64,000 nt of DNA from Candidatus Kaiserbacteria bacterium. Lineage in GTDB: Bacteria > Patescibacteriota > Minisyncoccia > Phycocordibacterales > UBA2100. Each line of letters begins with the position of its first letter. Positions within the stretch are counted from its first letter, which is position 1. Positions 2,292 through 20,455 of the stretch are shown here, one piece after another. The DNA is taken from NCBI GenBank assembly GCA_028286585.1, contig JAQBRI010000006.1, positions 16,558-80,557 on the forward strand. The letters run 5' to 3'. A program made the position numbers and the translations under genes. The notes under the pieces are model-generated. The model was not told where the DNA came from and made no database searches. It was given only the letters and a program-made list of their open reading frames with translations.

Positions 2292-3824
2292 TTAGTTTCC
2301 CAGTATAAGTGTGAATAATTTTGATGTAAAGCTCCAAAGAAAGTCAGTGAGTGCGTACAGTATCAAACAGACCACCAGTATTCGGCCTCCATACCGGCGC
2401 TCGATGTGCAGCAATCCATATACGGACAAAATGAAAAAAGGAAGTATTGCCGGAAAGAACAAGCGCGACGAGACATACCCCCACACAAATGCCGCTGGTA
2501 ACGCAAGAGTTAACACAATCACCTCTTTCTTTTGAAATGCACTCATTCCTTTCACATACAGAAGCCCAATCAGTGCATACACCCAACCGAGCAGGAGTGT
2601 TGCAAAAAAACTTTTTCCAACGTAATACACCGTAAACTGACTGTATGCCCCTTCGCTGGACGATCCAATCTTCAGCCAGTCGAGATACGTATAGTCGTAC
2701 AAAGCATATGTAATTGCTGTCCATATGGCGAGAAATACAATCGGTATCAATGTCACCAATAACAGATGAAAGGCATATTTACTAACGTTTTTATAGGTCT
2801 TGCTGAGAACGATCAAAAACAATGCTACTCCGATAAGCACTGTATATTCTTTCCATAAAAATCCCACAAGAATAAATGACAAGCTTGTTATGAGCGATGA
2901 GGTGCTTTCATTCCTGTTATATGCAACAGCATATGTTGCCGACATAAATACAAAAAATAAAATCCCTAGCTCCGTAAGTGGATCCAATCCGTACTTCAAC
3001 ACGGGATAGCTGGTAATGACAAGCAGCATTCCAAGATAGCTGGCAGTTTTATTACGATCAAAAAAGACATAGAAAAAATAGAGTGCCGCAAACGCGAGCA
3101 TACAGTATGTAATGCCATTTAATATTATGAATGCATCAAGATAAGGAATGTTGTTGATCTTGTGAATGCCGGCAAGTGAGAGCGGTGCGAGCGGCTTCAA
3201 CAGCCGAAATCCGGGAGCTGTAGCTACTTCGCCCCCATAATACTGCGCTGTTTGAATATACGTGGTTGTATCTGTACTCACTTCGGGTGACGTACTTATC
3301 GAATGAATTATAAAAAACGATGCAGCGCATAATGCAGTTATAAAGAACATTTTCCAAATCTCACTTTCCTCGGCTCCTTTGTTAAATACGAATTGCTTAT
3401 TAACAATAAAGCTTACCAGTGCCGAAGATCCCGCAGCAATGATATACGCCACAAAATGCGGAATCGCGAGAAATGTTGAAAGCGCGTAAAGTAGGAACAA
3501 TACCAAGACTAAATTTCCAGAGGATGCGCACAAGTACAATATGACTTGTTTATGCGCACTCTGTGTACGATTTTCTACAAACGACCAATTGCGATGAAGA
3601 TAAAATGCAAATATGAATGCAGCCAAAAAGGCTAACACTCCCGACAAGAGATAATCGACCCCAAGTACGCTGTTTAAAACGTAATAGCAGGCAAAATTCA
3701 ATATTGCAGCCGAAAAACCAGAAACGAAAAATCTTTGAAATGACACGAACCAGGTAGGCATACGCTTATTCATACAAGATATTTTGTTGCATAGTAGCAC
3801 GGCGAGTACCCGATACATAGACAA
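2292..3824 (-). CDS. GtrA-family domain fused to a large polytopic membrane glycosyltransferase (GT39/GT83 ArnT/PMT-like)
   Basis: N-terminus FFVSGFSAAILNFACYYVLNSVLGVDYLLSGVLAFLAAFIFAFYLHRNWSF = GtrA-like; remaining ~400 aa multi-TM; adjacent to a GtrB-like GT2. Confidence 0.55.
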   Translation of the reverse strand: MSMYRVLAVLLCNKISCMNKRMPTWFVSFQRFFVSGFSAAILNFACYYVLNSVLGVDYLLSGVLAFLAAFIFAFYLHRNWSFVENRTQSAHKQVILYLCASSGNLVLVLFLLYALSTFLAIPHFVAYIIAAGSSALVSFIVNKQFVFNKGAEESEIWKMFFITALCAASFFIIHSISTSPEVSTDTTTYIQTAQYYGGEVATAPGFRLLKPLAPLSLAGIHKINNIPYLDAFIILNGITYCMLAFAALYFFYVFFDRNKTASYLGMLLVITSYPVLKYGLDPLTELGILFFVFMSATYAVAYNRNESTSSLITSLSFILVGFLWKEYTVLIGVALFLIVLSKTYKNVSKYAFHLLLVTLIPIVFLAIWTAITYALYDYTYLDWLKIGSSSEGAYSQFTVYYVGKSFFATLLLGWVYALIGLLYVKGMSAFQKKEVIVLTLALPAAFVWGYVSSRLFFPAILPFFILSVYGLLHIERRYGGRILVVCLILYALTDFLWSFTSKLFTLILGN

Positions 3825-3867: not shown

Positions 3868-5139
3868 ATGTGGCCACAACTCTATAACCGAATCGAGCGT
3901 TTTAAGCTGGTATCAGGAGCCTATAATCTTAAGAGCTTTGCAAAAGATGCTTCATGGACCACGGTTTCCTCGGTTATTATTACAGCTTCCAATTTCGCAC
4001 TCGTCTATATTCTGGCGAATCTCATGTCACCAAACGAGTACGGACAATTCAAACTCATTGGCACGTGGCTAGCAATTGCAATTGGTTTTGGATTTTCTGG
4101 ATACAACTACATGATTCCACAGCAAATAGCGAGAAATCAATATGTCGACCTGAACCGCGCAATTAGATATACGTTCGTCAAAAGTATTCCGGCTGCAATT
4201 GCCCTCTTTTGTTTTGCTTTGTATTATTTGGCAGCAGCAAACATTCACCTTGGCTTTGGATTCGTACTCGCAGCAAGCACCATACCGTTTGTATGTGCAG
4301 CTGCCATTATCAATTCATATTACCTGGGTAAACGTGATTTTCCTCGAATGGCGATAACGCAAAATTCTGTAGATATTTTTCAGATTGCATGTGTTGCTGC
4401 TGTAGCCTATATATCAGGAAATTTTTTATTGATTATTTCAATATTTTTTATAGCAACAATTATTGGAAACATTGCAATCATTCTATATACCCTCAAGAGA
4501 CACGTAATAAGCGGATTGCCATCGAATTCATCGCTCGAGGATGTCCAGCAAAAAAATGCGGCGAAAAAAATAAATATCGCTAGTATTGTTCTTGGATTCA
4601 CTACACAGGCAGACAAATTGCTCATTTTCCACTTTATGGGAGGAGTTGAGCTGGCGATTTACTCAATCGTTACAGCAATTTCCGACCAGGCTCGCGTACC
4701 TACAAAAATATTTGGTGCAGTGCTCTTGCCGCGTATGGCATCTGATAACACGTCATTCAAAAGAATGCTTTTTATATTTGTCGCACTGATGATATTCTGC
4801 GCATTCCTGAGTGTATGTCTTCTCTTTATCTACCCTATTCTGTTTGAATATGTGTTCCCAAAATATATCGACTCCGTATACCTAGCCGACGTATCAACAC
4901 TTACGGTACTTTTTGCACCGGTATCTTTTTTAACCAATTACGTGCAGTCAAAAAATGACCTTAAAACCCTGACGCAGTTTGCATATCTCAATTCTTTTTT
5001 ACAAATCATTTTTTACTCGATTGCAGCATACCTTGGTTCGATAGTTCTATTCTTGATATTTCGCGCATTGCTTAGTCTGATAAACTCAGTACTCTTGCTA
5101 TTTCGATTGAGCAAAAACACTAACCTTTCTTCTTCATAA
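3868..5139 (+). CDS. Wzx-like polysaccharide flippase (MOP superfamily)
   Basis: 423 aa, about 12 predicted TM helices, typical polysaccharide biosynthesis protein architecture; divergent from the glycosyltransferases. Confidence 0.65.
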   Translation: MWPQLYNRIERFKLVSGAYNLKSFAKDASWTTVSSVIITASNFALVYILANLMSPNEYGQFKLIGTWLAIAIGFGFSGYNYMIPQQIARNQYVDLNRAIRYTFVKSIPAAIALFCFALYYLAAANIHLGFGFVLAASTIPFVCAAAIINSYYLGKRDFPRMAITQNSVDIFQIACVAAVAYISGNFLLIISIFFIATIIGNIAIILYTLKRHVISGLPSNSSLEDVQQKNAAKKINIASIVLGFTTQADKLLIFHFMGGVELAIYSIVTAISDQARVPTKIFGAVLLPRMASDNTSFKRMLFIFVALMIFCAFLSVCLLFIYPILFEYVFPKYIDSVYLADVSTLTVLFAPVSFLTNYVQSKNDLKTLTQFAYLNSFLQIIFYSIAAYLGSIVLFLIFRALLSLINSVLLLFRLSKNTNLSSS

Positions 5140-5761
5140 TCCAGATATATCCTAACGGGATCTTTGCTGCAAACCGCTGATATGCCGGCATTATCAATAA
5201 CAGCTTATCTATCGCAGTCATACAATATCTTATGCTGTTGTAAACAGCATCAAAATAAAAAATATTATGGATCGCGAGTGTCTGAAACACGAGCGAAAAG
5301 AAACCGTATCCGAGTTCTTCGATGTATACAATTTCGAACCCATACTTTTCTGCCAGTTTAATGTACGTGCTCTTGGTGTAGCGATGATAATCATCCGGCG
5401 AACCATGAATATGGTGCATGAAAGGCACGGTTGAAAGAAAAAGTCCACCAGGTTTGAGTACTCGAGAAACTTCGGCAAACACGTTGTGATAATTAAAAAT
5501 ATGCTCTAACACGTTCATTGTTACAACATTGTCATAGCTTGCACTTTCAAGCGGAAACTGTTTTTCTATATCAAATAGAATATCAGCGCCAGGATGACTG
5601 TCTCCATAGTTAACCACCGTCCAAGTATGACTCCCCCGTATAAGCTCGTGATATCCCGATTTATGACTGCCTCCCAAATCAAGAATACTGCCGTTAAGCT
5701 CAATGTGTCTTAATTTTTCATATTCATGCGTTCGAATAACTGATCCTTTTCCAGTACTCAT
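5120..5761 (-). CDS. class I SAM-dependent methyltransferase
   Basis: ILDLGGS (motif I), VLKPGGLFL. Confidence 0.7.
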   Translation of the reverse strand: MSTGKGSVIRTHEYEKLRHIELNGSILDLGGSHKSGYHELIRGSHTWTVVNYGDSHPGADILFDIEKQFPLESASYDNVVTMNVLEHIFNYHNVFAEVSRVLKPGGLFLSTVPFMHHIHGSPDDYHRYTKSTYIKLAEKYGFEIVYIEELGYGFFSLVFQTLAIHNIFYFDAVYNSIRYCMTAIDKLLLIMPAYQRFAAKIPLGYIWIMKKKG

Positions 5762-6558
5762 ATAGTGTTATTAATCTTACCAAATATAATATATCGCTTT
5801 GAATTCAATGTCTTGGTTTTCATATCTTCAAGTCGAAGTGAGTGAACCAGTGGTTGAAGCGGTATGGTTGCTAAATCGTCATGCATTTCTCCAGTGATCA
5901 TCCGTGTTCGAGTGGGTAATTTTGGATCTTCTAGCAGAACCGTTTCGGATCCTTCAATATCGAATTTTATGATATCAAAACAATCAACTCCATATTTTTT
6001 CAACATCGACTCAAGAGTTATGGACTTAACAGTTACACTCCCACTCTTCACATTGCGTTGAATTACTGAGAATCCAAGATGTGTGTCACTCTCATACAAT
6101 TCTATAGTCCCATCGACTGAGCTTAATGCGGCGGATGTGCAGCGGATGTTATCAAATTGTTTAGCATTCTTACACAACTGCAGAAAAATCCGAGGATTTG
6201 GCTCGATTGCGTAAATTGTCGCGTCGGGAAAATGTATTGCATAAAAAATCGCAGTGTCCCCTATATTTGCCCCAAGATCGAGAATATTTTTTATATTGTC
6301 TCCATATTCAAATTGATACTCCTGATTTACGAAGATGTCGGCAAGTACGGCAATATCAATTCGTTGCCGAATATGAAAAGTGAATTTTCTTTTTTTATAG
6401 ACAAGCTGTATTGCGATAGGTGCGGTTCTCACGATATTGAGATAGCAGATAGCAAAACAAAATGTAACATATAACCAATAGTGACGGAATATACTCCCTC
6501 CATCAAATGTCTGGGCAAGCAAAAAATTTGATCTCAAAAAATGAGTCAATCTTTTCAT
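5758..6558 (-). CDS. FkbM-family methyltransferase (start revised to internal MKRL at 6558)
   Basis: ILDLGANIGDTAIFYA...IYAIEPNP FkbM signature; the track ORF start at 6750 overlaps the upstream gene by 190 nt, whereas Met at 6558 abuts its stop. Confidence 0.7.
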   Translation of the reverse strand: MKRLTHFLRSNFLLAQTFDGGSIFRHYWLYVTFCFAICYLNIVRTAPIAIQLVYKKRKFTFHIRQRIDIAVLADIFVNQEYQFEYGDNIKNILDLGANIGDTAIFYAIHFPDATIYAIEPNPRIFLQLCKNAKQFDNIRCTSAALSSVDGTIELYESDTHLGFSVIQRNVKSGSVTVKSITLESMLKKYGVDCFDIIKFDIEGSETVLLEDPKLPTRTRMITGEMHDDLATIPLQPLVHSLRLEDMKTKTLNSKRYIIFGKINNTI

Positions 6559-6560
6559 AT

Positions 6561-7364
6561 TTATGGGGTCATCGGTTTTCTTGCGACAGCAACAAGTACA
6601 TCCTTGAGCAATGGGTGAATGAATCGAAGAAGCACTTTTTTTATAACAGTCTTTGTCTTTTGCCAGGTTGTTCGCTGAATTTTCAGTTTTGCATTCATTA
6701 TCGACGGATGCGTACAAGTGTCGAGATTTACCAGTTTGTGAGTACAGCACGAAAGAGAATCATTGGGTGAGAAAAAAGTCATCGAGTGCACTGAGTGCAC
6801 CTGTATGTCATCAAATTCAAATTCCGATAATAGTTTAGTCATCGCAAAAATCGAAAACGGGCGTATGTGCGTATAGTCATTATAAAAATAGATGTCTGAA
6901 AAAGGGGTAAATGCCCGGACCCAATTTGGTGTTTCGATATAAATAGTACCCCCCGGCTTAAGAACACTTCGATGAGAACTGATCATGTCGATTGGAAAGG
7001 TTAAATGTTCGATTACATGCATCTGTATGATGGCATCAAAAAAATTCTCCTCGTACAATTTGTCCACATCGTCAACAGAGCCAATTTTAAATTGCACCCC
7101 CTCTGGTAAATATTGACTCGTGTCGGTAATATCAATCGCGTACATCGTAACGTCGGGCCGGAGAGACAGAACCATTTTGGTTGCTTTGCCGTTACCGCAG
7201 CCTGAATCGAGTACCACAGCGTTTTGTGGAAGCACTTCAATAAAATTGATGAGTCGGGATCGAAACGTGTTTTTGCATGTTTGCAACGTTTGTTCTCGTG
7301 AGGCAATCTGTGAGTCCGGATTCTTACCAAAGTAATCGGCAGGAAATGATGTATATGTCTGCAT
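6561..7364 (-). CDS. class I SAM-dependent methyltransferase
   Basis: VVLDSGCGNGKAT (motif I), VLKPGGTIYIETPNW. Confidence 0.7.
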   Translation of the reverse strand: MQTYTSFPADYFGKNPDSQIASREQTLQTCKNTFRSRLINFIEVLPQNAVVLDSGCGNGKATKMVLSLRPDVTMYAIDITDTSQYLPEGVQFKIGSVDDVDKLYEENFFDAIIQMHVIEHLTFPIDMISSHRSVLKPGGTIYIETPNWVRAFTPFSDIYFYNDYTHIRPFSIFAMTKLLSEFEFDDIQVHSVHSMTFFSPNDSLSCCTHKLVNLDTCTHPSIMNAKLKIQRTTWQKTKTVIKKVLLRFIHPLLKDVLVAVARKPMTP

Positions 7365-7406
7365 ATGGGCACAATTCTAGCATAGAATAATTGGTTTGAT
7401 CGTAAT

Positions 7407-8435
7407 GTGTTAGTATTCGGTATGACCGGCATAAAAAAGCCAAAAAGAGGCCTATATATAGCAAATGGAGCTATTGGGGACTTTTTAATGACGATAAGTG
7501 TTTTTAAAGCCATTCACACTGTAGACCCCCAATCGCATCTCTTGGTGCTCACTTCACGAAATCTTAAACTACTTACAGATATTGCAAAACAATACCCGTT
7601 TGTGCAGCTATTTAATATCAATGACCCGCTAACATATCTTCCTAAACTCCTTTCATACGAGAAAACATATATTTTTTCTCCATATCCATTCGGCCGGGAA
7701 AATATAAAAGTTCAATTTTACAAAGTCATACTGCAAATTCTCACTCTTGGTACCATTATTCGATTCTCGAAAAATCCTCAATCGAGAACTTTTTTTGATC
7801 TGGAGGATACGTATTTCATAAACCAGGGTAAAATTTCATATTATTTTATAGGTCAGGCAATAGATAAAACTCCGCCACGTTATGATTATTTACCCGATGA
7901 TCGCATATTCCATAATGTAGGGGTGACGCCTCAGCACTATATTGTGATGCACATATTTGCATCCAATCCAATACGAAGTCTGCCAGAAAAACGATGGGTG
8001 GAAATTGTGCAAGAACTAAAGCAGACATATCCAAATATTCCAGTAATTTTATCTGGAAGTTCCGATGATTACCAAAAAAACAGGGAATTTTTAGATTCAC
8101 TGCACTGCATTCCATGTTTTGAGACAACCTGGGCAGAGCGCTGCACCATGATAGATAACTGTTCGCTCTTTATAGGAGTGGACACCGGTATAACACATCT
8201 CGCGTCATTATTACAAAAAAAGATCGTAGAGATAGGCAACCTATCCAATCCAACATGGCTAGTCACATATAACCCGAATGCAATTGTTTTGTTTTCAAAA
8301 AAGGACTGTATCTGTAAAGGGAACAAGCTTAGTCAGTGTTTTAGCGAAGTAGACGGTAAACAGTATTTTCGCTGCATGCTCAATGTTACTAACAAGGAAA
8401 TCCTTGACGCGGCATCAATACTGCTAAAGAATTAG
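7407..8435 (+). CDS. GT9 family glycosyltransferase (heptosyltransferase-like)
   Basis: N-terminal GAIGDFLMTISVFKAIH and C-terminal IGVDTGITHLASLL resemble the GT9 ADP-heptose:LPS heptosyltransferase signatures; converges on the heptose-nucleotide genes. Confidence 0.65.
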   Translation: MLVFGMTGIKKPKRGLYIANGAIGDFLMTISVFKAIHTVDPQSHLLVLTSRNLKLLTDIAKQYPFVQLFNINDPLTYLPKLLSYEKTYIFSPYPFGRENIKVQFYKVILQILTLGTIIRFSKNPQSRTFFDLEDTYFINQGKISYYFIGQAIDKTPPRYDYLPDDRIFHNVGVTPQHYIVMHIFASNPIRSLPEKRWVEIVQELKQTYPNIPVILSGSSDDYQKNREFLDSLHCIPCFETTWAERCTMIDNCSLFIGVDTGITHLASLLQKKIVEIGNLSNPTWLVTYNPNAIVLFSKKDCICKGNKLSQCFSEVDGKQYFRCMLNVTNKEILDAASILLKN

Positions 8436-8463
8436 GATACGTATATGTCACGGTACAAAAAAA

Positions 8464-9456
8464 CTATTGGATACTATTCAAAATCTCCTTAAACGAGGTA
8501 ACAACGACATGTGGTGATCGTATTGAATGCACATGCTTTTCCAACTTTCCCATAAAAATCGTCCTCATATTTGATGTTTTGCCTGCTTCTATATCGGTCA
8601 ACTTGTCACCAACAATCCACGATTTACCGAGTGCAATGTTATATTTTTTTGCCGCCTCCAGCAGTAAGCCGTTTTTTGGCTTACGACATTCGCATCCATC
8701 CTCATCCTGGTGCGGACAGACTAAAAATTCCGTAATAGTAATTCCCTTCTTCTTACATTCTCGATCAATATGCGCGTGCACAGCTTTAACTGCCGCGTTG
8801 GAGTACATTCCGCGTGCAATACCTGATTGATTCGTAATAACAAAAAGCTTATATTTTTCTCCCAGTTTTTTTAACGTCTCAAATACCCCATCTAGAAAAA
8901 CGACATCACCTACTTTATGTAGATATCCAGTGTCTTTTATAAGTACACCATCACGATCAAAAAATATTGCCTGGCTTGCCGGTTTCTCATTATTGACTCT
9001 CTCCAAGATAGAACTGGTAGTTTCAGACAAACTTTTATGAATCTTGATTTTTCCTCCCCACTCTTTTAAAAAGTCGGTTTCTATACTTAACTTTCCCCAA
9101 TCACTGCCATTTACGAAGATGTCGGGCTTGATACGAGTGAGCGGTAAAATACACGTTAGCTCGTCAAATATGCAAACATAATCTACATAGATAAGCGCTG
9201 CGAGTAATTCGGCACGATCTTTTTCCAGTATGATCGGTCTGCCATTGCCCTTATATGACCGTATTGATGCATCGCTGTTTAACAGCACAATAAGTATATC
9301 TCCCTTATTCTTTGCAGCTTTAATGAGTCCAAGGTGCCCAGAATGGAACATATCGAAGCTCCCACTTAACACAACGATACTTTTTTTATTTTTTCGCAGG
9401 CGAGTGACCTCCTGTAAAAGTTTTTTGAGGGGTACAATTTTGTTGGATATCAACAT
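8464..9456 (-). CDS. bifunctional heptose 1-phosphate adenylyltransferase (HldC/RfaE domain II-like) fused to D,D-heptose 1,7-bisphosphate phosphatase (GmhB, HAD)
   Basis: N-terminal half VLSGSFDMFHSGHLGLIKAAKNKGDILIVLLNSDASIRSYKG (HxGH nucleotidyltransferase). C-terminal half FFDRDGVLI...CPHQDEDGCECRKPKNGLL...IVGDKLTDIEAG (HAD motifs I-III plus the GmhB Zn-binding Cx(n)CxC). Confidence 0.75.
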   Translation of the reverse strand: MLISNKIVPLKKLLQEVTRLRKNKKSIVVLSGSFDMFHSGHLGLIKAAKNKGDILIVLLNSDASIRSYKGNGRPIILEKDRAELLAALIYVDYVCIFDELTCILPLTRIKPDIFVNGSDWGKLSIETDFLKEWGGKIKIHKSLSETTSSILERVNNEKPASQAIFFDRDGVLIKDTGYLHKVGDVVFLDGVFETLKKLGEKYKLFVITNQSGIARGMYSNAAVKAVHAHIDRECKKKGITITEFLVCPHQDEDGCECRKPKNGLLLEAAKKYNIALGKSWIVGDKLTDIEAGKTSNMRTIFMGKLEKHVHSIRSPHVVVTSFKEILNSIQ

Positions 9457-9461
9457 AGTGG

Positions 9462-10427
9462 TTATGCGTCAGATACCTGTCTGAGAAGTTCCCGTTTGGT
9501 AACTGAGGAAACTCCCTGTTTCTCGACAACAACTGCAGCAGCAACTGACGCAATATATATTGCATCTGTAATCGAATACCGGAGCGCAAGCGCAAGCGAC
9601 AAGGCTCCGATTACTGTGTCACCGCATCCTGATACATCGACCACATTGCTACTGTGAGAGTGTTGATGAATTTCAGTAAGATTCTGGTCGAAATGGCTCA
9701 TACCATCTGCTCCCCTGGTAACAAGAACGTTTGTACCAAAATCTTGTACAAATTTGTGTGCTGCCTTTTTGTAGTGTTTTACACCAACACTTTCATGTAA
9801 TTCTTTTGTATTTGGAGTAAATAAATGAATGTTTTTATTCTTATACATATGAATATGTGCTGGCTTTGTATCTACTATAATAGGCATTGAATGTTTTTTT
9901 GCATTGAGTGCAATTTTCTGCAATAGCTGCTCATCAATTACCCCTTTGGCATAGTCTGAAATGATAACGATGTCGTATGAAGTTATGTTTTTCAAAAAGA
10001 GATTCAACAATGTGTTACGATCTTTACTCACGTGAGTATTTTTCTCAAAATCCACGCGTGCGTGATGGGCATCATTCACAACCACTCGCTGCTTTACTGT
10101 TGTCGTTGCGTTTTTACTTTTGACTATTCCCTTTGTTGGAATCTGTGATTTTTTTGAGAGTCGGAGCAGTAAATCAGCATGGGTATCATTTCCTACTATG
10201 GAATAAATATCGGCATGACCACCGAGCGTAATGATATTGTTCGCAACATTAAGTGCACCTCCCAAAAAATAGCTCGTGTGATTAATCTGTATTACTGGCG
10301 CTGTAGAACATTCAGGCGACATGCGCGCAATGAATCCGTAGGAAAACTGATCGAGCATTACATCTCCTATTACAGCGATTTGTATTTTTTTGGTATCACG
10401 TATAAATTTTTTGAGCGTGCTTTGCAT
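9462..10427 (-). CDS. hldA: D-glycero-beta-D-manno-heptose 7-phosphate kinase (HldA / RfaE domain I, PfkB family)
   Basis: IAVIGDVMLDQFSYGFIARMSPECSTAPVIQI matches the RfaE kinase N-terminus; C-terminal DVSGCGDTV PfkB motif. Confidence 0.75.
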   Translation of the reverse strand: MQSTLKKFIRDTKKIQIAVIGDVMLDQFSYGFIARMSPECSTAPVIQINHTSYFLGGALNVANNIITLGGHADIYSIVGNDTHADLLLRLSKKSQIPTKGIVKSKNATTTVKQRVVVNDAHHARVDFEKNTHVSKDRNTLLNLFLKNITSYDIVIISDYAKGVIDEQLLQKIALNAKKHSMPIIVDTKPAHIHMYKNKNIHLFTPNTKELHESVGVKHYKKAAHKFVQDFGTNVLVTRGADGMSHFDQNLTEIHQHSHSSNVVDVSGCGDTVIGALSLALALRYSITDAIYIASVAAAVVVEKQGVSSVTKRELLRQVSDA

Positions 10428-10436
10428 ACATTAAAT

Positions 10437-11006
10437 CTAGTAGAGAGAATCTATATGCTCACAAATAAGGTGGATTAAAAAGAGATGAATCTCTTGGATG
10501 CGTGCGGTATTATCGCTTGGCGCGATATATTCGACGTCGCATGTACCACGTAGTGCTCCTCCGTTTTTTCCCAGGAGCGCACAGGTTCGTATTTTTTGTT
10601 TCTTTGCTAGCGCAATTAGACCCAAGAGATTTTGTGAGTTACCGCTCGTGGACAATAGGACCAATATATCTCCTGGCTGCCCAAGTGCTGCAAGCTGCCT
10701 TTCAAAGACTTTTTCATAGCCATAATCATTGCCTATTGCAGTCAAAATAGAGGTATCAGTGGTAAAAGCGATTGAAGGAAGCGCAATTCTCTCTTTCTTA
10801 TAGCGTCCAACCAGTTCGGCAGAAAAGTGCTGTGCCTCGGCGGCACTTCCTCCATTACCAGCTATCAATATCTTTTTCTTTGTTTTAAGCGCCTTTTCGA
10901 AAAGACGGAGAATTTTTTCGATATTCTGCTGGTCCGACTCACCAACCAGTTCGGTTACTGTCCGCAACTGCTGTAATTCCGACTTGATTAATTGGGCTAT
11001 TTTCAT
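10437..11006 (-). CDS. gmhA: D-sedoheptulose 7-phosphate isomerase (SIS domain)
   Basis: ILIAGNGGSAAEAQHFSAELVGRY and LLSTSGNSQN SIS/GmhA signatures; 189 aa. Confidence 0.85.
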   Translation of the reverse strand: MKIAQLIKSELQQLRTVTELVGESDQQNIEKILRLFEKALKTKKKILIAGNGGSAAEAQHFSAELVGRYKKERIALPSIAFTTDTSILTAIGNDYGYEKVFERQLAALGQPGDILVLLSTSGNSQNLLGLIALAKKQKIRTCALLGKNGGALRGTCDVEYIAPSDNTARIQEIHLFLIHLICEHIDSLY

Positions 11007-11026
11007 TGCTCGTAATGTATCACATT

Positions 11027-12139
11027 TCAGTCAATAATTCTCTCTTTAAAAGCTTGTAAGACTCTAGGTAGGTCATACGCGGATACGCCTTCAAATAATG
11101 CTCTTCCGAGTATGTTTCTCTCATTTTCATTGGATAATAGGAAAAGAATGTGGTTTATAAATACAGCTATGTTTTTTGCAGGTGCTACATATCGACTGAA
11201 CGGGGCGGGAAACATATCAATAGTACCTCCGACATCGAAGGCAACAGTGGCAATCCCCGCGGACATGCTCTCTAGAAGTGCGTGCGCCATTCCCTCTTCC
11301 TCACTCGGTAAAATAAATATGTCAGACGCCTTAAACAAATCTGGCATCCTTTCGTTTACGACTCGACCAAGCATGCGAAACTTATTTTCCAATCTTCTTT
11401 CCTGAATTTCTTTTATTAGCGTTGCTTCATACGGTCCGTCGCCTGTCACGATCAATACAACATCCTCCAGCATCGCCTCCATAATCTGTGGCAAATAATG
11501 TGCACCTTTCCTTTCGCTCAAGCGCTGTACAAAAAAAAGGACTTTGCTTTCTGGCAATATATTTAATTGCGCACGCACACTATTTCTATCAGCTTCGTGA
11601 TATTTTTTTGCAAATAGTGGTACATCAATCCAGTTTGGCACAATTACAACTTTTGAAGCATTGAACTTGTAATACTCCGCATACTGATTAATTAAAACAT
11701 GTGCGCCGGTTACCAAATGATCAATTCTCTTGTACACTAGTCTTTCGTACATTTCTTGGAATACGGGCCGTTTATATTCCCAAGGCATTCCACAGTTCCA
11801 GTAATATACGACAGAGCCGGGAATTAGTGTGGCCAAAAATGCGGCAATAAATGAATAATGTACATACACTTTTTTATATCCATATATTCGCGCATTAGTG
11901 AGATGGAGAAATGTTTTTATTATTCGCAGTATGGTGTACCTGCTGTCAATCAGAGCAACGTGTGCTGTTGTTTGCATTAACGTCTGCGGCTTCTTACCTT
12001 TTTCAATAATTACGTAGAGATCTACAGTTTGCGAAAGATGCGCCAAAAATTCCACATTGTATTTCATGTGCGTATTGGTGGTTGCCTCGGGCAATACGTA
12101 ACACAGCTTCTTCTTTGGCTCTTTTATGGTTATGGACAT
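11027..12139 (-). CDS. GT4 family glycosyltransferase
   Basis: C-terminal PSEEEGMAHALLESMSAGIATVAFDVGG (E-x7-E GT-B motif). Confidence 0.75.
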   Translation of the reverse strand: MSITIKEPKKKLCYVLPEATTNTHMKYNVEFLAHLSQTVDLYVIIEKGKKPQTLMQTTAHVALIDSRYTILRIIKTFLHLTNARIYGYKKVYVHYSFIAAFLATLIPGSVVYYWNCGMPWEYKRPVFQEMYERLVYKRIDHLVTGAHVLINQYAEYYKFNASKVVIVPNWIDVPLFAKKYHEADRNSVRAQLNILPESKVLFFVQRLSERKGAHYLPQIMEAMLEDVVLIVTGDGPYEATLIKEIQERRLENKFRMLGRVVNERMPDLFKASDIFILPSEEEGMAHALLESMSAGIATVAFDVGGTIDMFPAPFSRYVAPAKNIAVFINHILFLLSNENERNILGRALFEGVSAYDLPRVLQAFKERIID

Positions 12140-12145
12140 ACTATT

Positions 12146-12799
12146 CTATTGATCCAACTCTAGCATGTGACCATCCGATTTAAGTATGAGCATATCGCCA
12201 AAAGGAACGTCGCCCCCAACGGTCACGCCTCGATTTTCGACCTCTCCAGTAAGCTGTAACGCCCGCATAATTCCTGAGTGCGAAACGATCAATATATTTT
12301 TGCCTTGATATTCGCCTGCAATTCTCGTGAGTGCTGCCTTAAATCTCAGGGCTCCTTTTTTAAAAGATTCTGCACTCCCAAATATTGGATGCTGGCCCGG
12401 AAATGCGAAATCAAAATTATTGTTATCTTGCGGATGTGCTGCGAAATATTCTTTTTTTTGTTGTGCAACTTCGGTGACTGGCATACCCTCATGTATACCG
12501 TAATTAATTTCTATAAGATCGGGGTCAACAATAGGGATAAGATGCGACTGCTCCGCACCTTCAAGAAAGGCCTGAGCAGAATCATGAGAGCGTGCCAACG
12601 GTGAAACAAAAACAGCATCAAATGCAATATTCTTGTAATTCTTCCCTGTCTCTATCATGCTTTTTTTTCCATTCTCAGTTAAAGGTGTGTCCAAGCGCCC
12701 CGATACCAATGGCCCGCCGTTTGCCAAGTCGTTTGTCTTTGCAGCAGTTTCGCCGTGACGAACAAGGAATAACTTTGCAAATTCCACTTCGTCTTTCAT
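12146..12799 (-). CDS. histidine phosphatase family protein (phosphoglycerate mutase-like)
   Basis: LVRHGETAAK (RHG catalytic motif), ILIVSHSGIMRAL. Confidence 0.7.
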   Translation of the reverse strand: MKDEVEFAKLFLVRHGETAAKTNDLANGGPLVSGRLDTPLTENGKKSMIETGKNYKNIAFDAVFVSPLARSHDSAQAFLEGAEQSHLIPIVDPDLIEINYGIHEGMPVTEVAQQKKEYFAAHPQDNNNFDFAFPGQHPIFGSAESFKKGALRFKAALTRIAGEYQGKNILIVSHSGIMRALQLTGEVENRGVTVGGDVPFGDMLILKSDGHMLELDQ

Positions 12800-12806
12800 A
12801 ATTACA

Positions 12807-13409
12807 CTATTCCAAAAATCGCGATATTACAAATCCTTCTGCAAACGTCGATCGTGCCTGATACCCGCGAAATGTATTCATACCTAATATTGCATCGATT
12901 TTGAGAATTTCCTTTTCACCCTGACTTGCGTGTGCTCGTATGGATTCCGCTTTCTTTTCGGTGTGACCTTCGATATTTATCCAATAATTTACATGAAAGT
13001 CCGACATGGTGCTTGGTCCTTCGTACATAAGAATTTGACGAACGTTTCTGCATGCCGATAGTGCTACCGCACTCGTAGTTCGATGGTCTTGATGAATTTC
13101 ATGATGGTACGGAATATAGACCCGATCAGGCGAAGCTAACAAAATAATTTTTTCAACTTGATCGATAACCGATTTATCGCCCGGGAGCGAAGCATCTTTA
13201 TATCCGAGCAGGTGTACCTCCTTTACATTGAGAATCTTTGCCGCGTTTCTTGCCTCAGATTCACGTACTTCACTAGAAACGCCACCAGAGCTGCCGTCAG
13301 TCATGATTATGAACGTAACAGTATCTCCTTGAGACACATGCTTTGCAATTGCACCGCCGCAGCCTATTTCGATATCGTCTGGGTGTGCTCCTATGGCTAC
13401 TATATTCAT
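12807..13409 (-). CDS. PIG-L/LmbE family N-acetylglucosaminyl deacetylase
   Basis: MNIVAIGAHPDDIEIGCGGAIAKH (AHPDDE motif). Confidence 0.75.
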   Translation of the reverse strand: MNIVAIGAHPDDIEIGCGGAIAKHVSQGDTVTFIIMTDGSSGGVSSEVRESEARNAAKILNVKEVHLLGYKDASLPGDKSVIDQVEKIILLASPDRVYIPYHHEIHQDHRTTSAVALSACRNVRQILMYEGPSTMSDFHVNYWINIEGHTEKKAESIRAHASQGEKEILKIDAILGMNTFRGYQARSTFAEGFVISRFLE

Positions 13410-13416
13410 ATATGTA

Positions 13417-14376
13417 TTATATTATTGTATCCTCAAAATACCTACTCACGGTTAATTCTTTCCATTGCACCGAAGTCTTTTTTGCCCCTAATTCATCGAG
13501 TAAAACCTTGATTGGGTTTGCCCCAGCGAGTGCCGTTATTGTGACACCACCAGAAAGGCGAGGGTTTATTTCTACCATTTTTGGTATTCCGTACTGATTC
13601 TCTTTCCACTGAATAAAGACGGGGCCAAAACAATCAAGCTTGCTCAGTACCTGTTTTGTCATCTCAATAATATCCTCCCTCTTTTCTGTTTTTCCGACCA
13701 GTGAAATGCCGCCAGAAAGTGACACTCTCACTCGTGGTACAACATATGCAAAAGTCCCGTCAGCACGAATATATGCATCAACAGTCCACTCTTTCCCCGG
13801 CAACACTTCCATTGCTATGGTTTTGGTCGTATCGATATTTTTCATCATCCAAAGTAATTCGACTCTTGATACCAATCGACACCCTCTGCTTCCCCTCCCT
13901 GTAATTGGCTTTATGAAATATTCCTCTGCCTTCCATTCTAGTTTTTTATTCAGAACTTGATGTGGTCCAATATAGTCAGGAAATTGACTTGTCATCCAAT
14001 CATACAGTTCATTTTTTTTGTCACAGAGCAATAAACTTCTTTTATTAGATACCACAAAAAGTACTTCTTCATTCTTTATTTTGTTTTCTACATCTTCGAT
14101 GAGTACGAGCTCTTCTGCAACAGTGGGTAGAACAATATCGATCTTATTTTTTGTAATGTAACTGCTCATCCATTTTATATATTCTTGCCTACTCGATACA
14201 CTCTCGCATACGTCAAAGTGCTTTGAAAATTTCTTTCCAACAGAGAGCGGATTAATATCGACACCAAAAACTTCAAAATCCTTTTTATACTTTTGCAGTA
14301 ACCGAACCGCATTGATTCCGGCAGGTCCTCCTACTCCCGTTACGAGAATATTGTATTTTTTATTTTTCGACGGCAT
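13417..14376 (-). CDS. ATP-grasp family ligase
   Basis: NILVTGVGGPAG N-terminus; central and C-terminal lobes with KPITGRGSRGCRLV and EINPRLSGG typical of ATP-grasp (CPSase large-chain-like). Confidence 0.6.
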   Translation of the reverse strand: MPSKNKKYNILVTGVGGPAGINAVRLLQKYKKDFEVFGVDINPLSVGKKFSKHFDVCESVSSRQEYIKWMSSYITKNKIDIVLPTVAEELVLIEDVENKIKNEEVLFVVSNKRSLLLCDKKNELYDWMTSQFPDYIGPHQVLNKKLEWKAEEYFIKPITGRGSRGCRLVSRVELLWMMKNIDTTKTIAMEVLPGKEWTVDAYIRADGTFAYVVPRVRVSLSGGISLVGKTEKREDIIEMTKQVLSKLDCFGPVFIQWKENQYGIPKMVEINPRLSGGVTITALAGANPIKVLLDELGAKKTSVQWKELTVSRYFEDTII

Positions 14377-15481
14377 GTTCTAGGAATTTTTCTATTTCTA
14401 ATTGCATTGTTGTGGAAGTCCATTTACTGCCAAGCCGGCTACCATTTGCGCAGAGCATACCATAAAACTCCTTATTTACAATCATTTTTTCCAAAGCAGC
14501 AACATACTCATCAGAGCGTGAACCCTGTATTACAACTCCATTTAGATCATTGATTATAACCTCTCCAGCGCATCCGGTATCGGTTGTAAGAACTGGCAAA
14601 CCACAGCACGACGCTTCAACCATCGGCAAACCCCATCCTTCCCAGAAAGCCGTGTGAATCAATGCGAACCCATTTTTATAGTACTGCGCGACAGCATGGG
14701 TATCGAGGAATCCTGGCATTTCGAGTCTGTTAGTCAGGCCCGCATCTGTGAATTTTTTGACAATTGCACTTTTCAGCTTTCCTTCTCCAATAAAGACAGC
14801 CGTAAAGTCTGGATATTTCTGAAGAATTGGAATCATTATTTCGCAACAAAAAAGCGGCTGTTTTTCTTCGATAAGGCGTCCGCAGAAAATGAGATTATGA
14901 TTGCGCACATGGCCGTTGTCGACGCCCTGCGGATTAAATTCATCTCCATTAACGCCGATTGGAAGCGAGACGACTCTGTTTGAATCTTTCCCCAATGTTT
15001 CAATGACATATGTGGCAATTCTGCTGCTGACGCACCGTACATAATCCGATTTCTTAATCAAAAATTTACCGCTAATGTTTAAGAAGCGATTTTCAAATCG
15101 TTGATTGATCCATAAAGGATTGTCCAAATAGTCACCATGTAATTGAGTAATCAATATTGTTTTACAAAACCTTGAGAGCAGATACCCCGCAATTCCACAA
15201 TACAATACATCTTGAGTATAGATAATGTCATACGTATTTTTTCTTATATCTCGAAGCAGAATAAAAAAACTTTTTACAAACGAAACAATCCGGTTTGTAG
15301 CTCCATAGGAGACAATGTGTACATGCCCACTCTGAAATGTAGACGCACTATTAGAGCCAAGGACGACTATTTTTACATATTCAAAATTCTTAAAGTTATC
15401 TATTTGTCGCCGGCTTGAGACTGATCCTTCATGTAGAATCAACTTGTCTGTACCCAATACCAGTACCCGTAGACTGTTCAT
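14360..15481 (-). CDS. GT4 family glycosyltransferase
   Basis: FWEGWGLPMVEASCCGLPVLTTDTG. Confidence 0.75.
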   Translation of the reverse strand: MNSLRVLVLGTDKLILHEGSVSSRRQIDNFKNFEYVKIVVLGSNSASTFQSGHVHIVSYGATNRIVSFVKSFFILLRDIRKNTYDIIYTQDVLYCGIAGYLLSRFCKTILITQLHGDYLDNPLWINQRFENRFLNISGKFLIKKSDYVRCVSSRIATYVIETLGKDSNRVVSLPIGVNGDEFNPQGVDNGHVRNHNLIFCGRLIEEKQPLFCCEIMIPILQKYPDFTAVFIGEGKLKSAIVKKFTDAGLTNRLEMPGFLDTHAVAQYYKNGFALIHTAFWEGWGLPMVEASCCGLPVLTTDTGCAGEVIINDLNGVVIQGSRSDEYVAALEKMIVNKEFYGMLCANGSRLGSKWTSTTMQLEIEKFLEHAVEK

Positions 15482-15515
15482 ACGGCCACTATATCACACT
15501 GGTATCTGAACAATT

Positions 15516-16409
15516 TTAAGATTCCTGAGTAATAGAACCGATGACTCCTTCGAGAAGCTCCTTATCTTTGCCTGATGTAATGAGATAATCATTATTTTTT
15601 TCTCGAATTGAAAATAGTGCCTCATATCCTTTTATATCAGTCGGTAGATTTTTTTTATACATCTCAAGCAGGGCCTCAAAGTCCTTTATAAAACAATGAC
15701 CTCCAGCGCCACGCCCAACCGCGGTCTCATCATGTCCCGAAGCATGAACTACCGTTGTATGACTCTCCCCAATTCGCGGGTCACGCGTCACAGCTTCAGT
15801 AATAGACGCCACATCCAGATTCATGGAAACCGCAAGATCATACATTTGATTGAAGAAAACGACTTTTTCGTACAAAAAGCAGTTGCCGATGTATTTAACT
15901 AATTCAGCCTCACGAGCTTGCATGATTTTGTTGTATGGAGCGGTCGCGAGCGTACTCAAGACCAACTCTGCTTTCTCATGATTGATCGCGGTATCTTCTG
16001 GAATTCCTATAATATTCCTTTGAGGGTGCGAGGCATCGTATGCAGCGAGAGTTTCTCGCAAAAATTCTGGTGAATGAAAAACGAATATTTCTTGATTTTT
16101 TTCTTGCAGGCTGTTCGTGGTGCCGGGAAGAATGGTGGACTTAATAACGGCAATATTACCCTTTCCCACCAACAACAAACAGCTCTCGACAATCGAGGAG
16201 TCAAAACCATTCTGTGTTGTCGGTGTAGGAACACAAATAAAGACAATTTCACAATCCTTAATGAGATCCTTATTAGTACGATATTGTTCATCCAATGAAT
16301 ATCGTATTACCGAATACCCTCTTGCTTCAAAATCATTTGCATAGTTATTTCCTACCCACCCTTGTCCGATAAATCCGATCAGCGGGGTTTTATTTGTTTT
16401 TTCTATCAT
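15516..16409 (-). CDS. UDP-glucose/GDP-mannose dehydrogenase-family protein, short form lacking the C-terminal UDP-binding domain
   Basis: IGFIGQGWVGN Rossmann N-terminus and GGHCFIKDFEAL (catalytic Cys motif GGxCFxKD); only 297 aa. Confidence 0.5.
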   Translation of the reverse strand: MIEKTNKTPLIGFIGQGWVGNNYANDFEARGYSVIRYSLDEQYRTNKDLIKDCEIVFICVPTPTTQNGFDSSIVESCLLLVGKGNIAVIKSTILPGTTNSLQEKNQEIFVFHSPEFLRETLAAYDASHPQRNIIGIPEDTAINHEKAELVLSTLATAPYNKIMQAREAELVKYIGNCFLYEKVVFFNQMYDLAVSMNLDVASITEAVTRDPRIGESHTTVVHASGHDETAVGRGAGGHCFIKDFEALLEMYKKNLPTDIKGYEALFSIREKNNDYLITSGKDKELLEGVIGSITQES

Positions 16410-16457
16410 CGAGTCATTTTCTCACAAATTATTTATTATCCAAATACCGCCCTAAAA

Positions 16458-17450
16458 TCAGGAAATAACTTTTATAAAGTCACGTGCTACTGCGTCATAG
16501 GTGCGTACCGTGCTCCATTTCGAAACCTTTTCGCATTCCTGTTCATACACCCGCGGATCAAGCAATGATTTTATCGCGACCACAAGCTCATCTTCATTCA
16601 ACGGATCAACGAGCAGGCCGTAGGGCTGCAGCTCTTCCTCAAGTCCGCAATATTTTGTCATGATAAAAGGCTTATGACATCGGGCTGCATCAAGGATAAA
16701 GTTTGGACTAATTTCAGTAATGGATGGTAATAATACCGCGTAACAATATTTCATCCGTTCAAGTAGTTCCTTATGAGAATAAATTCCGTCATCAAGAATT
16801 ATGTCGGGAAATTTTGCTTGAACTCGTGCAAATGCACTACGCACGATCGTGAGGTTTTTGAACACAAGCGAGCGCACATTCCACATAAAAATCTTCTCAT
16901 GCGGCGGCTCGCCCGGGGTCAATTCTTCAATGGCATTTCCAATGATATGCGTATGCTCTTTTGCGATTCTATATTCGGCACACCACAGATCCTGTTGTAG
17001 CTTTGTGCTAAAAATCATACGTGCGCGCCGCACTACATACCCTGTGAGTGCATATATCATTCGCTCCTTACGCGTAAATGGCTGGTGGTGCGAGTAAAAG
17101 CCGGACAAAGGTAACAGATCATGACTGCGCTCGAGATATGCCTCCCATAAAAAATCTCCGCCCGTGCGGATATATACCTGTGTCTTAAAAAAACCTGCGA
17201 GAAACACTAGCGGCAGCGCCACGCTAAACGTATCAAGTGCGATTACTGTCTTATAACGCATAAGGTACGATATGAGTCGGATACCAAACGCTATATGACG
17301 AATGCCGATTGGAAGTTTTTTGAGCCTGCCGTACGTGACCACTTCAACAGTGTGCCCTGCACGCCTGAGCGAAAACTGCAGCTCTTGTGCATAGCGCGAT
17401 GGTCCGCCAATTTCTGGCGGAAATATGCCTGTTGCTATGAGAATTTCCAT
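16458..17450 (-). CDS. glycosyltransferase (GT-B fold, GT4-like)
   Basis: MEILIATGIFPPEIGGPSRYAQELQFSLRRAGHTVEVVT N-domain; weak C-domain similarity. Confidence 0.55.
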   Translation of the reverse strand: MEILIATGIFPPEIGGPSRYAQELQFSLRRAGHTVEVVTYGRLKKLPIGIRHIAFGIRLISYLMRYKTVIALDTFSVALPLVFLAGFFKTQVYIRTGGDFLWEAYLERSHDLLPLSGFYSHHQPFTRKERMIYALTGYVVRRARMIFSTKLQQDLWCAEYRIAKEHTHIIGNAIEELTPGEPPHEKIFMWNVRSLVFKNLTIVRSAFARVQAKFPDIILDDGIYSHKELLERMKYCYAVLLPSITEISPNFILDAARCHKPFIMTKYCGLEEELQPYGLLVDPLNEDELVVAIKSLLDPRVYEQECEKVSKWSTVRTYDAVARDFIKVIS

Positions 17451-17459
17451 ATCACAATT

Positions 17460-19561: not shown

Positions 19562-20455
19562 TTAGATGCTATTGCCTATCGAAAGCGAAAGCGCAAAAGC
19601 CAAAACAGTTACGAGTGAAAATAAAAACACCGACCTTCCCCATTTTTTATCATCTGTCGCATTAAATCCCCGAACAGCAAGCAGGAGCCATAGTACAGAC
19701 ACAAGACCCATGATGACTGCATAGATTTTGCCTTCGTATCCTGAGAGAAATAACCATTCTGAAAATACTCCAAACAGCACAATATAGGCAAGCGTGTGCA
19801 TTTTCGTTGTACGAACCCCATACACCACCGGCAAGACCGGGATGCCCGCATTTTTGTAATCGTCAAATCGATACAATGCTATTCCATATGAATGCGGCAT
19901 CTGCCAAACGACGAGTACTAAAAAAAGAAGTATCGCACCCAAATCAATATGATTTGTGACAGCAAGATATCCCACGACGGGCGGCACAGCTCCTGCAATA
20001 GCCCCGATAAGCGTTCCGTAGACACTCTTTCTTTTACCCCATAAGCTATACACCACTACATAAAAGAAAAGACCTACAAGCGCAACAAAAGTTGTGAGAA
20101 TATTTGTAAATACGAAAAGCACGAATACTCCCACAATTCCAAGAGCCAGTGCGTACAAAAAAATATTTCTCTTGGATATAACACCGCGCACCAGCACACG
20201 CTCTTTTGTGCGCTCCATCCGTGCATCAATATCGCGATCTATATAATTATTTATCACACATCCGCAGGCAATAATAAGTGATATTCCGACTAGAACGATA
20301 AGTAACAAAGTAATATCAAGATGGCCGCGGGTAGCCAAAAAATATCCCCCAATAACATTGATCGCATTACCGTAGATAATGCCCGGTTTTATAACAGAAT
20401 AGTATGCTTTTACTTGAGAGTCGCGAGGCATGATATTAGAGGGCATTTTGGACAT
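19562..20455 (-). CDS. cyoE: protoheme IX farnesyltransferase (heme O synthase, UbiA family)
   Basis: Multi-TM UbiA architecture, NYIDRDIDARMERTKERVL motif region; directly downstream of the quinol oxidase subunits. Confidence 0.85.
   Translation of the reverse strand: MSKMPSNIMPRDSQVKAYYSVIKPGIIYGNAINVIGGYFLATRGHLDITLLLIVLVGISLIIACGCVINNYIDRDIDARMERTKERVLVRGVISKRNIFLYALALGIVGVFVLFVFTNILTTFVALVGLFFYVVVYSLWGKRKSVYGTLIGAIAGAVPPVVGYLAVTNHIDLGAILLFLVLVVWQMPHSYGIALYRFDDYKNAGIPVLPVVYGVRTTKMHTLAYIVLFGVFSEWLFLSGYEGKIYAVIMGLVSVLWLLLAVRGFNATDDKKWGRSVFLFSLVTVLAFALSLSIGNSI

Follow-up and report, generated by a model that had tools for sequence, protein, structure and literature searches.

A predicted nucleotide-heptose pathway with a fused HldC::GmhB enzyme and a GT9 glycosyltransferase in a glycan operon of "Candidatus Kaiserbacteria"

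Three adjacent genes in a 64,000-nt stretch of "Candidatus Kaiserbacteria" DNA (the whole of which is referred to here as the window), annotated as gmhA, hldA, and a fused hldC::gmhB, probably encode a complete beta-series nucleotide-heptose pathway, with a convergent gene for a family GT9 glycosyltransferase that would add the heptose to a cytoplasmic acceptor. The window is part of a 127,908-bp contig of a metagenome-assembled genome (MAG) of this candidate phyla radiation (CPR) lineage, presumably a member of the class Paceibacteria, where Kaiserbacteria are usually placed; the locus studied spans positions 7407 to 11006. Heptose is usually viewed as a hallmark of the lipopolysaccharide (LPS) core of Gram-negative bacteria, and ADP-heptose is an innate-immune (ALPK1) agonist. 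All four open reading frames (ORFs) were intact and lay where an initial annotation of the sequence had placed them, and the motifs quoted in that annotation (GNGGSAAEAQHF, FHSGH, FFDRDGV, and CPHQDEDGCECRKP) were each recovered from the translations. The features of the locus are as follows (lengths in amino acids [aa]).

7407 to 8435, plus strand: GT9-like gene, 342 aa (337 aa from the NCBI start, ATG at 7422)
8307 to 8375, plus strand: Cys4 knuckle of the GT9 protein (C301, C303, C311, and C323), from an alignment of 38 homologues
8464 to 9456, minus strand: HldC::GmhB fusion gene, 330 aa, two domains
8515 to 8976, minus strand: GmhB domain, residues 161 to 314, predicted heptose-1,7-bisphosphate 7-phosphatase (PRK08942)
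8992 to 9405, minus strand: HldC domain, residues 18 to 155, predicted heptose-1-phosphate adenylyltransferase (TIGR02199)
9462 to 10427, minus strand: PfkB-type hldA kinase gene, 321 aa
10437 to 11006, minus strand: gmhA, SIS-domain gene, 189 aa

The stop codons of the convergent GT9 and fusion genes are 28 bp apart, and gmhA, hldA, and hldC::gmhB form the tail of a long co-directional run on the minus strand that begins near 20.4 kb. NCBI proteins from a "Candidatus Kaiserbacteria" MAG matched the fusion and GT9 proteins at 100% identity, and a 16S rRNA gene, the RNase P RNA, and housekeeping genes lie in the window itself. Given the 16S rRNA gene on the contig and the NCBI Kaiserbacteria label, the heptose genes are not a binning artifact, barring a chimeric assembly.

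In the proposed pathway, GmhA would isomerize sedoheptulose-7-phosphate to the 7-phosphate of D-glycero-D-manno-heptose (step 1), and the kinase would convert this to the beta-1,7-bisphosphate (step 2), the beta-anomer being suggested by the PfkB type of the kinase. The GmhB domain, C-terminal in the fusion, would take off the 7-phosphate (step 3), and the HldC domain would act as heptose-1-phosphate adenylyltransferase (step 4). Since the fusion joins the consecutive steps 3 and 4, hand-over of heptose-1-phosphate within one protein is plausible. The GT9 enzyme, predicted from its sequence to be an inverting GT-B heptosyltransferase, would then attach heptose in alpha linkage to a cytoplasmic acceptor, for which an oligosaccharide linked to polyprenyl diphosphate is the most likely candidate; this would be built by neighboring GT2/GT4 enzymes and exported by a Wzx flippase, and the neighboring conserved methyltransferase may modify the acceptor-linked product.

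Assignment of the heptose-nucleotide enzymes

Families were assigned with Pfam and NCBIfam hidden Markov models (HMMs), and NCBIfam equivalog cutoffs were used for orthologue calls. Domain-by-domain assignment, the check proposed with the initial annotation, returned a heptose enzyme as the best family in every case by a large margin. The GmhA protein scored 206 bits against PRK13936 (E = 4e-61; cutoff, 276), 193.7 bits against TIGR00441 (cutoff, 209.45), and 92.6 bits against Pfam SIS_2. Its translation, with GNGGSAAEAQHF and STSGNS, contains the SIS-fold phosphate-binding motifs (GNGGS and STSGNS), and it was 55 to 66% identical to the gmhA products of L006 and L089 (related loci compared with the window are labeled L001 to L093). 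DiaA, considered as an identity for this gene, fell 75 bits behind (131 versus 206 bits). The kinase scored 276 bits against TIGR02198 (rfaE_dom_I; E = 3e-82; cutoff, 345) over model positions 3 to 314 of 315 and 137.8 bits against Pfam PfkB, was 33% identical to the N-terminal domain of Escherichia coli HldE, and carries the anion-hole motif DVSGCGDT; ribokinase, the next family, reached 86 bits.

The HldC domain of the fusion scored 132.6 bits against TIGR02199 (rfaE_dom_II; cutoff, 181.5) and matched Burkholderia pseudomallei HldC (5x9q) at 78 to 80 bits and 33 to 35% identity, and its model superposed on 5xf2 with a template modeling (TM) score of 0.82 at 34% identity. Its HxGH motif is FHSGH, in a region that was nearly invariant in the family alignment. 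Glycerol-3-phosphate cytidylyltransferase (TagD; 40.5 bits), CoaD, and FAD synthase, tried as identities for this N-terminal domain, scored approximately 40 bits or less and were rejected.

The GmhB domain scored 151 bits against PRK08942 (cutoff, 178) and 132.8 bits against TIGR01656, above the cutoff of 84. It matched E. coli GmhB (2gmw) at 93 bits by sequence and, as a model, with a TM score of 0.86, a root mean square deviation (rmsd) of 2.5 Å, and 31% identity. The domain keeps the Cys/His zinc loop CPH..CEC as well as FFDRDGV and CPHQDEDGCECRKP, and D167 and D169 (the HAD nucleophile pair), N209, Q210, K259, D284, and D288 were invariant in the fusion-family alignment. Scores for this domain hardly separated the alpha-type (NF050049, 130.5 bits) from the beta-type models (151 and 129 bits), and histidinol phosphatase (HisB N-terminal domain) was set aside as its identity at 83 versus 151 bits. 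With both domains assigned by HMM and matched to HldC and GmhB structures, the single polypeptide described in the initial annotation holds. An AlphaFold (AF2) model of the fusion built from 23 homologues had a predicted local distance difference test score (pLDDT) of 91.9 and a predicted TM score of 0.88; no PDB entry among the structural matches covered both domains.

The initial annotation had named assignment to the GDP-alpha-heptose route (HddA/HddC), or of the nucleotidyltransferase to TagD, as an outcome that would count against it. The GDP-alpha-heptose route shares GmhA and GmhB with the window and likewise supplies heptose to a surface glycan other than LPS in a monoderm cell, but it proceeds through a GHMP kinase and an NTP_transferase-fold guanylyltransferase, whereas the window encodes a PfkB kinase and a cytidylyltransferase-like HxGH enzyme (PF01467). 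This route was rejected, as neither protein matched the GHMP or NTP_transferase family, the kinase being of the HldA/PfkB type and the nucleotidyltransferase of the HldC type.

The E. coli system (GmhA, HldE, GmhB, and HldD with WaaC/WaaF) comprises the same four chemical steps, carried out by the same enzyme families (SIS isomerase, PfkB kinase, HAD-IIIA phosphatase, and HxGH nucleotidyltransferase), with a GT9 GT-B consumer. It differs from the window in that HldE fuses steps 2 and 4 rather than 3 and 4; in the window, no HldD and no LPS genes were found, and there is no lipid A-Kdo acceptor. Split HldA/HldC systems, such as that of B. pseudomallei (5x9q/5xf2), resemble the window in their stand-alone PfkB kinase and similar HldC domain, but B. 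pseudomallei HldC is a separate protein that contains the STTR5 arginine, while HldC in the window is joined to GmhB and lacks it.

This arginine bears on the nucleotide. The STTR5 arginine lies at position 5 of (F/L)xxGxSTT, as in the motif FEHDRSTT of B. pseudomallei HldC; the corresponding stretch in the window is KSLSETTS, with no Arg at position 5, a place taken by F, Y, H, or V in most fusion-family members. According to accounts of the survey by Tang et al. 2024, the arginine is tied to CTP/UTP promiscuity but is not strictly required for it (PMC11461863, PMC11573728). ADP is therefore the most likely nucleotide, without being proven. As to configuration, neither of the two short-chain dehydrogenase/reductase (SDR) genes in the 64-kb window (61 and 98.6 bits) reached the HldD cutoff (TIGR02197; 274.6 bits), in line with the initial annotation, which had seen no hldD at the locus; SDR genes of L009, L089, and L090 were likewise rejected as HldD (51 to 110 bits). 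The GT9 enzyme TibC is specific for ADP-D,D-heptose (PMC4358343). With no HldD in the window or related loci, and with this precedent, D,D-heptose is favored. Decoration of a surface glycan or S-layer with D,D-heptose, as proposed in the initial annotation, was nevertheless not established.

It is unlikely, though it deserves some weight, that the pathway operates as described but yields something other than, or in addition to, ADP-D,D-heptose: CDP- or UDP-heptose, or ADP-L,D-heptose made with an HldD whose gene lies beyond the window. CTP and UTP are substrates for some HldC-type enzymes, with the STTR5 arginine not strictly needed according to the accounts cited above; the window covers 64 kb of a contig that is itself part of a larger genome; and the GT9 protein has Thr at the DTG position, as in WaaC. 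Against this stand the motif lacking Arg at position 5, the use of ADP-heptose by characterized GT9 heptosyltransferases, and SDR scores that at best reached 110 bits.

Distribution and origin of the HldC::GmhB architecture

The top approximately 110 database matches to the fusion shared its two-domain architecture at 30 to 49% identity, and a motif count over 234 retrieved clusters assigned at least 149 to the HldC::GmhB order and at least 40 to the reverse, GmhB::HldC. The initial annotation had called the fusion unusual; it does differ from E. coli HldE, which joins kinase and HldC, but it is common in public data. Taxa were taken from database record names and from titles in a GTDB genome scan, whose 80 retained loci were mostly stand-alone GmhB genes and which yields taxa rather than a fusion frequency. 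Named sources included Patescibacteria, Saccharibacteria, Planctomycetota, Pseudomonadota, Woesearchaeota, Nanoarchaeota, and Micrarchaeota, as well as Atribacteria, Sumerlaeota, Calditrichaeota, and Bdellovibrionota. A 331-aa GmhB::HldC fusion in a MAG of Micrarchaeota, a DPANN archaeon (L014, 7995 to 8990, plus strand), adjoins gmhA and a PfkB kinase gene. The occurrence of two fusion orders implies at least two independent fusion events.

The gene order gmhA-hldA-hldC-gmhB was found with separate hldC and gmhB in Negativicutes, Bacilli, Syntrophotalea, and Thermodesulfobacteriota MAGs and with an in-frame fusion in Saccharibacteria, Planctomycetota, and others. The simplest reading of the window fusion is that it derives from this common order of genes by loss of the stop codon between hldC and gmhB. 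HldC::GmhB is a widespread and recurrent architecture, and no paper describing it, or the GT9 subfamily of the window, was found in the literature. The architecture is at present under-annotated, and the NCBI name of the window fusion reflects the phosphatase half only. In accounts of Tang et al. 2024 (PMC11461863, PMC11573728), the enzymes of heptose biosynthesis occur widely among bacteria, archaea, eukaryotes, and viruses, so that the same enzyme set is found outside LPS-bearing bacteria, and the nucleotidyltransferase architectures given there (mono-domain, kinase/nucleotidyltransferase, and isomerase/kinase/nucleotidyltransferase) include none with a phosphatase. The nucleotidyltransferase::phosphatase and phosphatase::nucleotidyltransferase proteins presented here are not among the three architectures in these commentaries.

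Truncated homologues of the fusion were present at two related loci. In L001, which is syntenic with the window (45 to 64% identity across 13 genes), a 257-aa homologue (8999 to 9772, plus strand) keeps HldC (152 bits), with the HAD core (approximately residues 167 to 260) deleted and a C-terminal remnant left; in L089, a 257-aa homologue (2321 to 3094, plus strand) has the same HAD-deleted form, with gmhA and hldA retained. Loss of the phosphatase is evidently tolerated. A His_Phos_1 gene conserved in the window, L001, and L089 encodes a candidate substitute for the lost GmhB phosphatase.

These deletions, together with the loss of gmhA and hldA in L001 and a G+C content of 0.39 to 0.41 at 8 to 12 kb compared to approximately 0.45 for the window, could also mean that the heptose genes are decaying, or are what remains of a recent transfer, and play no part in the envelope. 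This is very improbable: the four ORFs are intact, all catalytic residues are conserved, and the genes are tightly packed in a long co-directional operon; homologues 43 to 49% identical across many CPR-type contigs point to long-term selection; and the lower G+C content is common to the whole glycan operon.

Two other loci held related gene sets. In a Saccharibacteria MAG (L009, 75 to 9350, plus strand), gmhA-hldA-hldC::gmhB is followed by genes for a B12-binding radical SAM enzyme, an FkbM methyltransferase, a GT4, another methyltransferase, and an epimerase::HAD fusion, with no GT9, which suggests a modified heptose and a different transferase. In L090 (3887 to 8648, plus strand), a 642-aa GT2::GT9 fusion lies beside genes for a GMD-like 4,6-dehydratase, a PfkB kinase, and a 267-aa HldC, with ABC-transporter and PMT genes close by; this locus may represent a 6-deoxy-heptose variant of the pathway.

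The GT9 subfamily, its cysteine knuckle, and its genetic linkage

The GT9 protein scored 42.9 bits against Pfam PF01075 (gathering cutoff, 22), the match covering the C-lobe only, which places it in CAZy family GT9. A profile of 38 homologues matched WaaC across both lobes (E = 4.8e-12), and the AF2 model (pLDDT, 92.3) returned top Foldseek matches that were almost all GT9 enzymes (WaaF, a Veillonella GT9, WaaC, and TibC). The WaaC residues D13, K192, E222, D261-T262-G263, and H266 correspond to D, R, D, D259-T260-G261, and H264 in the window protein, the change from E222 to D being the same as in WaaF. Equivalents of the catalytic Asp and of the ADP-heptose contacts were conserved across 18 homologues and invariant in 38. 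Absence of the conserved heptosyltransferase residues, which the initial annotation had listed as counting against it, was thus not observed in comparison with E. coli WaaC and WaaF. Equivalog status as WaaC, WaaF, or WaaQ was rejected (44, 35, and 17 bits versus cutoffs of 185, 135, and 170, respectively). The protein differs from WaaC/WaaF both in these scores, which lie far under the cutoffs (44 versus 185 bits for WaaC), and in its additional Cys4 knuckle.

The window GT9 belongs to a distinct subfamily: in a full scan of 1.84 billion representatives, 207 representatives matched at E ≤ 1e-30 compared to 8,168 at 1e-10, and named members came from Kaiserbacteria, Yonathbacteria, and Pacebacteria. 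In the 38 homologues, C301, C311, and C323 of the knuckle were invariant and C303 was nearly so. A CxC-x(5-12)-C-x(8-16)-C cluster was found in 118 of 158 full-length subfamily members, some of the others having a Cys3His variant and some no cluster, and in 127 of 129 motif-bearing sequences of any length it starts 42 residues past the DTG aspartate. By profile-alignment offsets, the position of the Cys4 knuckle may be comparable to that of the iron-binding Cys4 finger in the C-lobe of TibC (Cys339/342/358/370), which is a lead only. Residue-by-residue equivalence was not confirmed, the HMM alignments to TibC spanning profile positions 235 to 283 only; TibC was not retrieved with a C-terminal GT9 query, and its stereoselectivity determinant, Pro-300, was not mapped onto the window protein.

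It is accordingly worth considering whether the GT9 is a protein O-heptosyltransferase like TibC/AAH (BAHT) whose target is a protein of the cell surface (pilin, S-layer, or adhesin) and not a lipid-linked glycan. The structural comparison returned TibC (E about 6e-11; rmsd, 4.4 Å), and TibC/AAH resembles the window protein in its GT9-like GT-B core, in its Cys4 metal site late in the C-lobe, comparable in position to the conserved knuckle approximately 42 residues past DTG, and, for TibC, in the use of ADP-D,D-heptose. However, membership in the family was rejected (TIGR04414, Aah/TibC; 15.5 bits versus a cutoff of 200), and the 342-aa protein has neither the N-terminal beta-barrel, which is also missing from its model, nor the beta-hairpin thumb; its N-lobe is a full Rossmann fold, WaaC and WaaF match it better, and its knuckle begins with CxC rather than CxxC. 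Equivalence of the cluster to the iron finger is unconfirmed at the residue level, no autotransporter substrate is encoded nearby, and the neighboring Wzx, GT2, and GT4 genes are typical of lipid-linked glycan assembly. Protein O-heptosylation therefore appears quite unlikely, and transfer to a lipid-linked glycan is preferred.

Heptose-nucleotide genes lay within 10 kb of the GT9 gene in 5 of 10 loci, as listed.

Window: gmhA, hldA, and hldC::gmhB beside the GT9 gene
L006: the same four-gene set as the window
L089: GT9-gmhA-hldA-HldC
L001: HldC only
L092: a canonical 481-aa HldE-type fusion instead

The most constant neighbor of the GT9 subfamily was the gene for a Methyltransf_23 methyltransferase that adjoins GT9 in the window. 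Its orthologues (34 to 64% identity) lie directly beside GT9 in L001 (7143 to 7940), L006 (5180 to 5941), L092 (9247 to 9999), and L093 (9260 to 10000), with the end of the gene abutting the GT9 start in L092 and L093. The enzyme may methylate the sugar that is transferred, or its acceptor. A Wzx gene flanks GT9 in L001, L002, L006, L092, and L093, and the conserved core is methyltransferase-GT9-Wzx, to which heptose genes are often attached.

Glycan operon, envelope context, and significance

Approximately 20 kb around the heptose genes form a glycan operon encoding five methyltransferases, a GT2, a GtrA-fused membrane protein, a Wzx flippase, and several GT1/GT4 enzymes. A Wzx-type operon in a CPR bacterium agrees with the Gram-positive/CPR-type setting proposed in the initial annotation, as does the finding, also anticipated there, of peptidoglycan-type genes elsewhere in the window (Mur ligases, MurJ, RodA, and a MurA-like gene) with no LPS genes (lpx, kds, or waa) seen in the 64 kb. 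E. coli WaaL had no similarity to the window by tblastn, and no second GT9 gene or WaaL-like ligase was found in it. Further features of the operon and of the window are as follows.

3868 to 5139, plus strand: Wzx-like flippase (Polysacc_synt; Pfam PF01943, 34.3 bits)
6561 to 7364, minus strand: Methyltransf_23 methyltransferase gene (Pfam, 61.5 bits), adjoining GT9
11027 to 18668, minus strand: upstream part of the minus-strand run, with GT1/GT4, His_Phos_1, PIG-L deacetylase, ATP-grasp ligase, and short UDP-sugar dehydrogenase genes (Pfam and NCBIfam)
59337 to 60770, minus strand: WbaP/WcaJ-like polyprenyl-phosphate glycosylphosphotransferase (Bac_transf, 180 bits; TIGR03025, 274 bits)

The WbaP/WcaJ-like enzyme is a candidate initiating transferase, and a tie to the heptose operon may be supposed. 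The module of GT1, His_Phos_1, PIG-L, ATP-grasp, and GT4 genes lies at 11027 to 16409 (minus strand) in the window, at 10395 to 15792 in L001 (48 to 57% identity; 48 to 58% for the longer set at 11027 to 18668), and at 3072 to 7566 in L089; the short UDP-sugar dehydrogenase gene follows it in the window and L001, and an epimerase-family gene takes that place in L089. Its activities (glycosyl transfer, dephosphorylation, de-N-acetylation, and ATP-dependent ligation) recall mycothiol-type logic or uronamide formation. An FkbM-methyltransferase ORF (5758 to 6750, minus strand; GTG start, 330 aa) overlaps the gene at 6561 to 7364 by approximately 190 bp; similarity to the L001 orthologue is seen only from its residue 58 onward, which makes an internal Met the probable true start. 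A promoter/terminator scan of 7200 to 11300 returned fewer sites than in shuffled sequence and was uninformative.

Other gene groups of the window were also recorded. A complete cytochrome bo3 ubiquinol oxidase set (19562 to 24301, minus strand) is located directly upstream of the glycan operon, with cyoA, cyoB, and cyoC above NCBIfam cutoffs and cyoE (heme o synthase); cytochrome o oxidase operons have been reported in Paceibacteria as horizontal acquisitions (PMC9166423). Genes for a TraD/VirD4-like coupling ATPase and a tetrapyrrole-methylase-family protein (25263 to 27455 and 29231 to 29944, minus strand) flank the glycan region, as they do in L093 (1 to 2471), which hints at conserved synteny. 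The first approximately 550 residues of an 871-aa Mur-ligase protein (31476 to 34091, minus strand) had no Pfam match. The 16S rRNA gene is followed by genes for tRNA-Ile and then the MurA-like protein (49856 to 52092, minus strand), with no 23S rRNA gene after the 16S; a 5S fragment lies at the window edge (63919 to 64000, minus strand), approximately 12 kb from the 16S rRNA gene, and the rRNA genes appear unlinked.

Several points weigh against the proposed pathway and its consumer. All four proteins scored under NCBIfam equivalog cutoffs, which marks them as divergent members rather than close orthologues and means that their substrate specificity is extrapolated; the functions of the fusion family and of the GT9 subfamily are predictions from sequence comparison. 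No heptose gene was found within 8 to 10 kb of GT9 in L002/L003, L004/L005, L091, or L093. In L001, the closest syntenic locus, gmhA and hldA are missing and the fusion is without its HAD core, yet GT9 is kept, so that GT9 does not strictly depend on pathway genes nearby. Adjacent to the locus there is no gene for an initiating transferase, polymerase, or ligase, and an hldD gene could lie in the rest of the genome, beyond the 64-kb window. With these points taken into account, a complete beta-series pathway feeding the GT9 is still considered the probable reading.

A wider proposal, plausible but tentative, is that HldC::GmhB and its mirror form, GmhB::HldC, would constitute a fourth, previously undescribed class of NDP-heptose synthetase that arose at least twice and in which the phosphatase hands heptose-1-phosphate directly to the adenylyltransferase. 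In combination with the methyltransferase and a GT9 subfamily that is CPR-restricted and carries the metal knuckle, it would build a (possibly methylated) D,D-heptose envelope glycan or glycoprotein in cells without an outer membrane, and Kaiserbacteria and Saccharibacteria would be unrecognized producers of ADP-heptose.

ADP-heptose synthesis has already been noted in freshwater Paceibacteria by Chiriac et al. 2022 (PMC9166423), in one sentence that was the only relevant one found in the literature on heptose in Patescibacteria. That report concerns the same lineage and makes the same pathway call, but at the module level only, with no fusion, GT9 subfamily, or operon context. The present finding extends a known pathway and overturns nothing in current understanding. 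A full beta-series pathway with a GT9 in a Wzx-type operon of an ultra-small CPR bacterium offers a concrete handle on CPR envelope chemistry, which is almost unknown, and the fusion of steps 3 and 4, which occurs in both domain orders in CPR bacteria, DPANN archaea, and other phyla, lets the coupling of consecutive enzymes be viewed as a natural experiment. If the enzymes are active, LPS-free symbionts, including relatives of Saccharibacteria, would make the ALPK1 agonist ADP-heptose.

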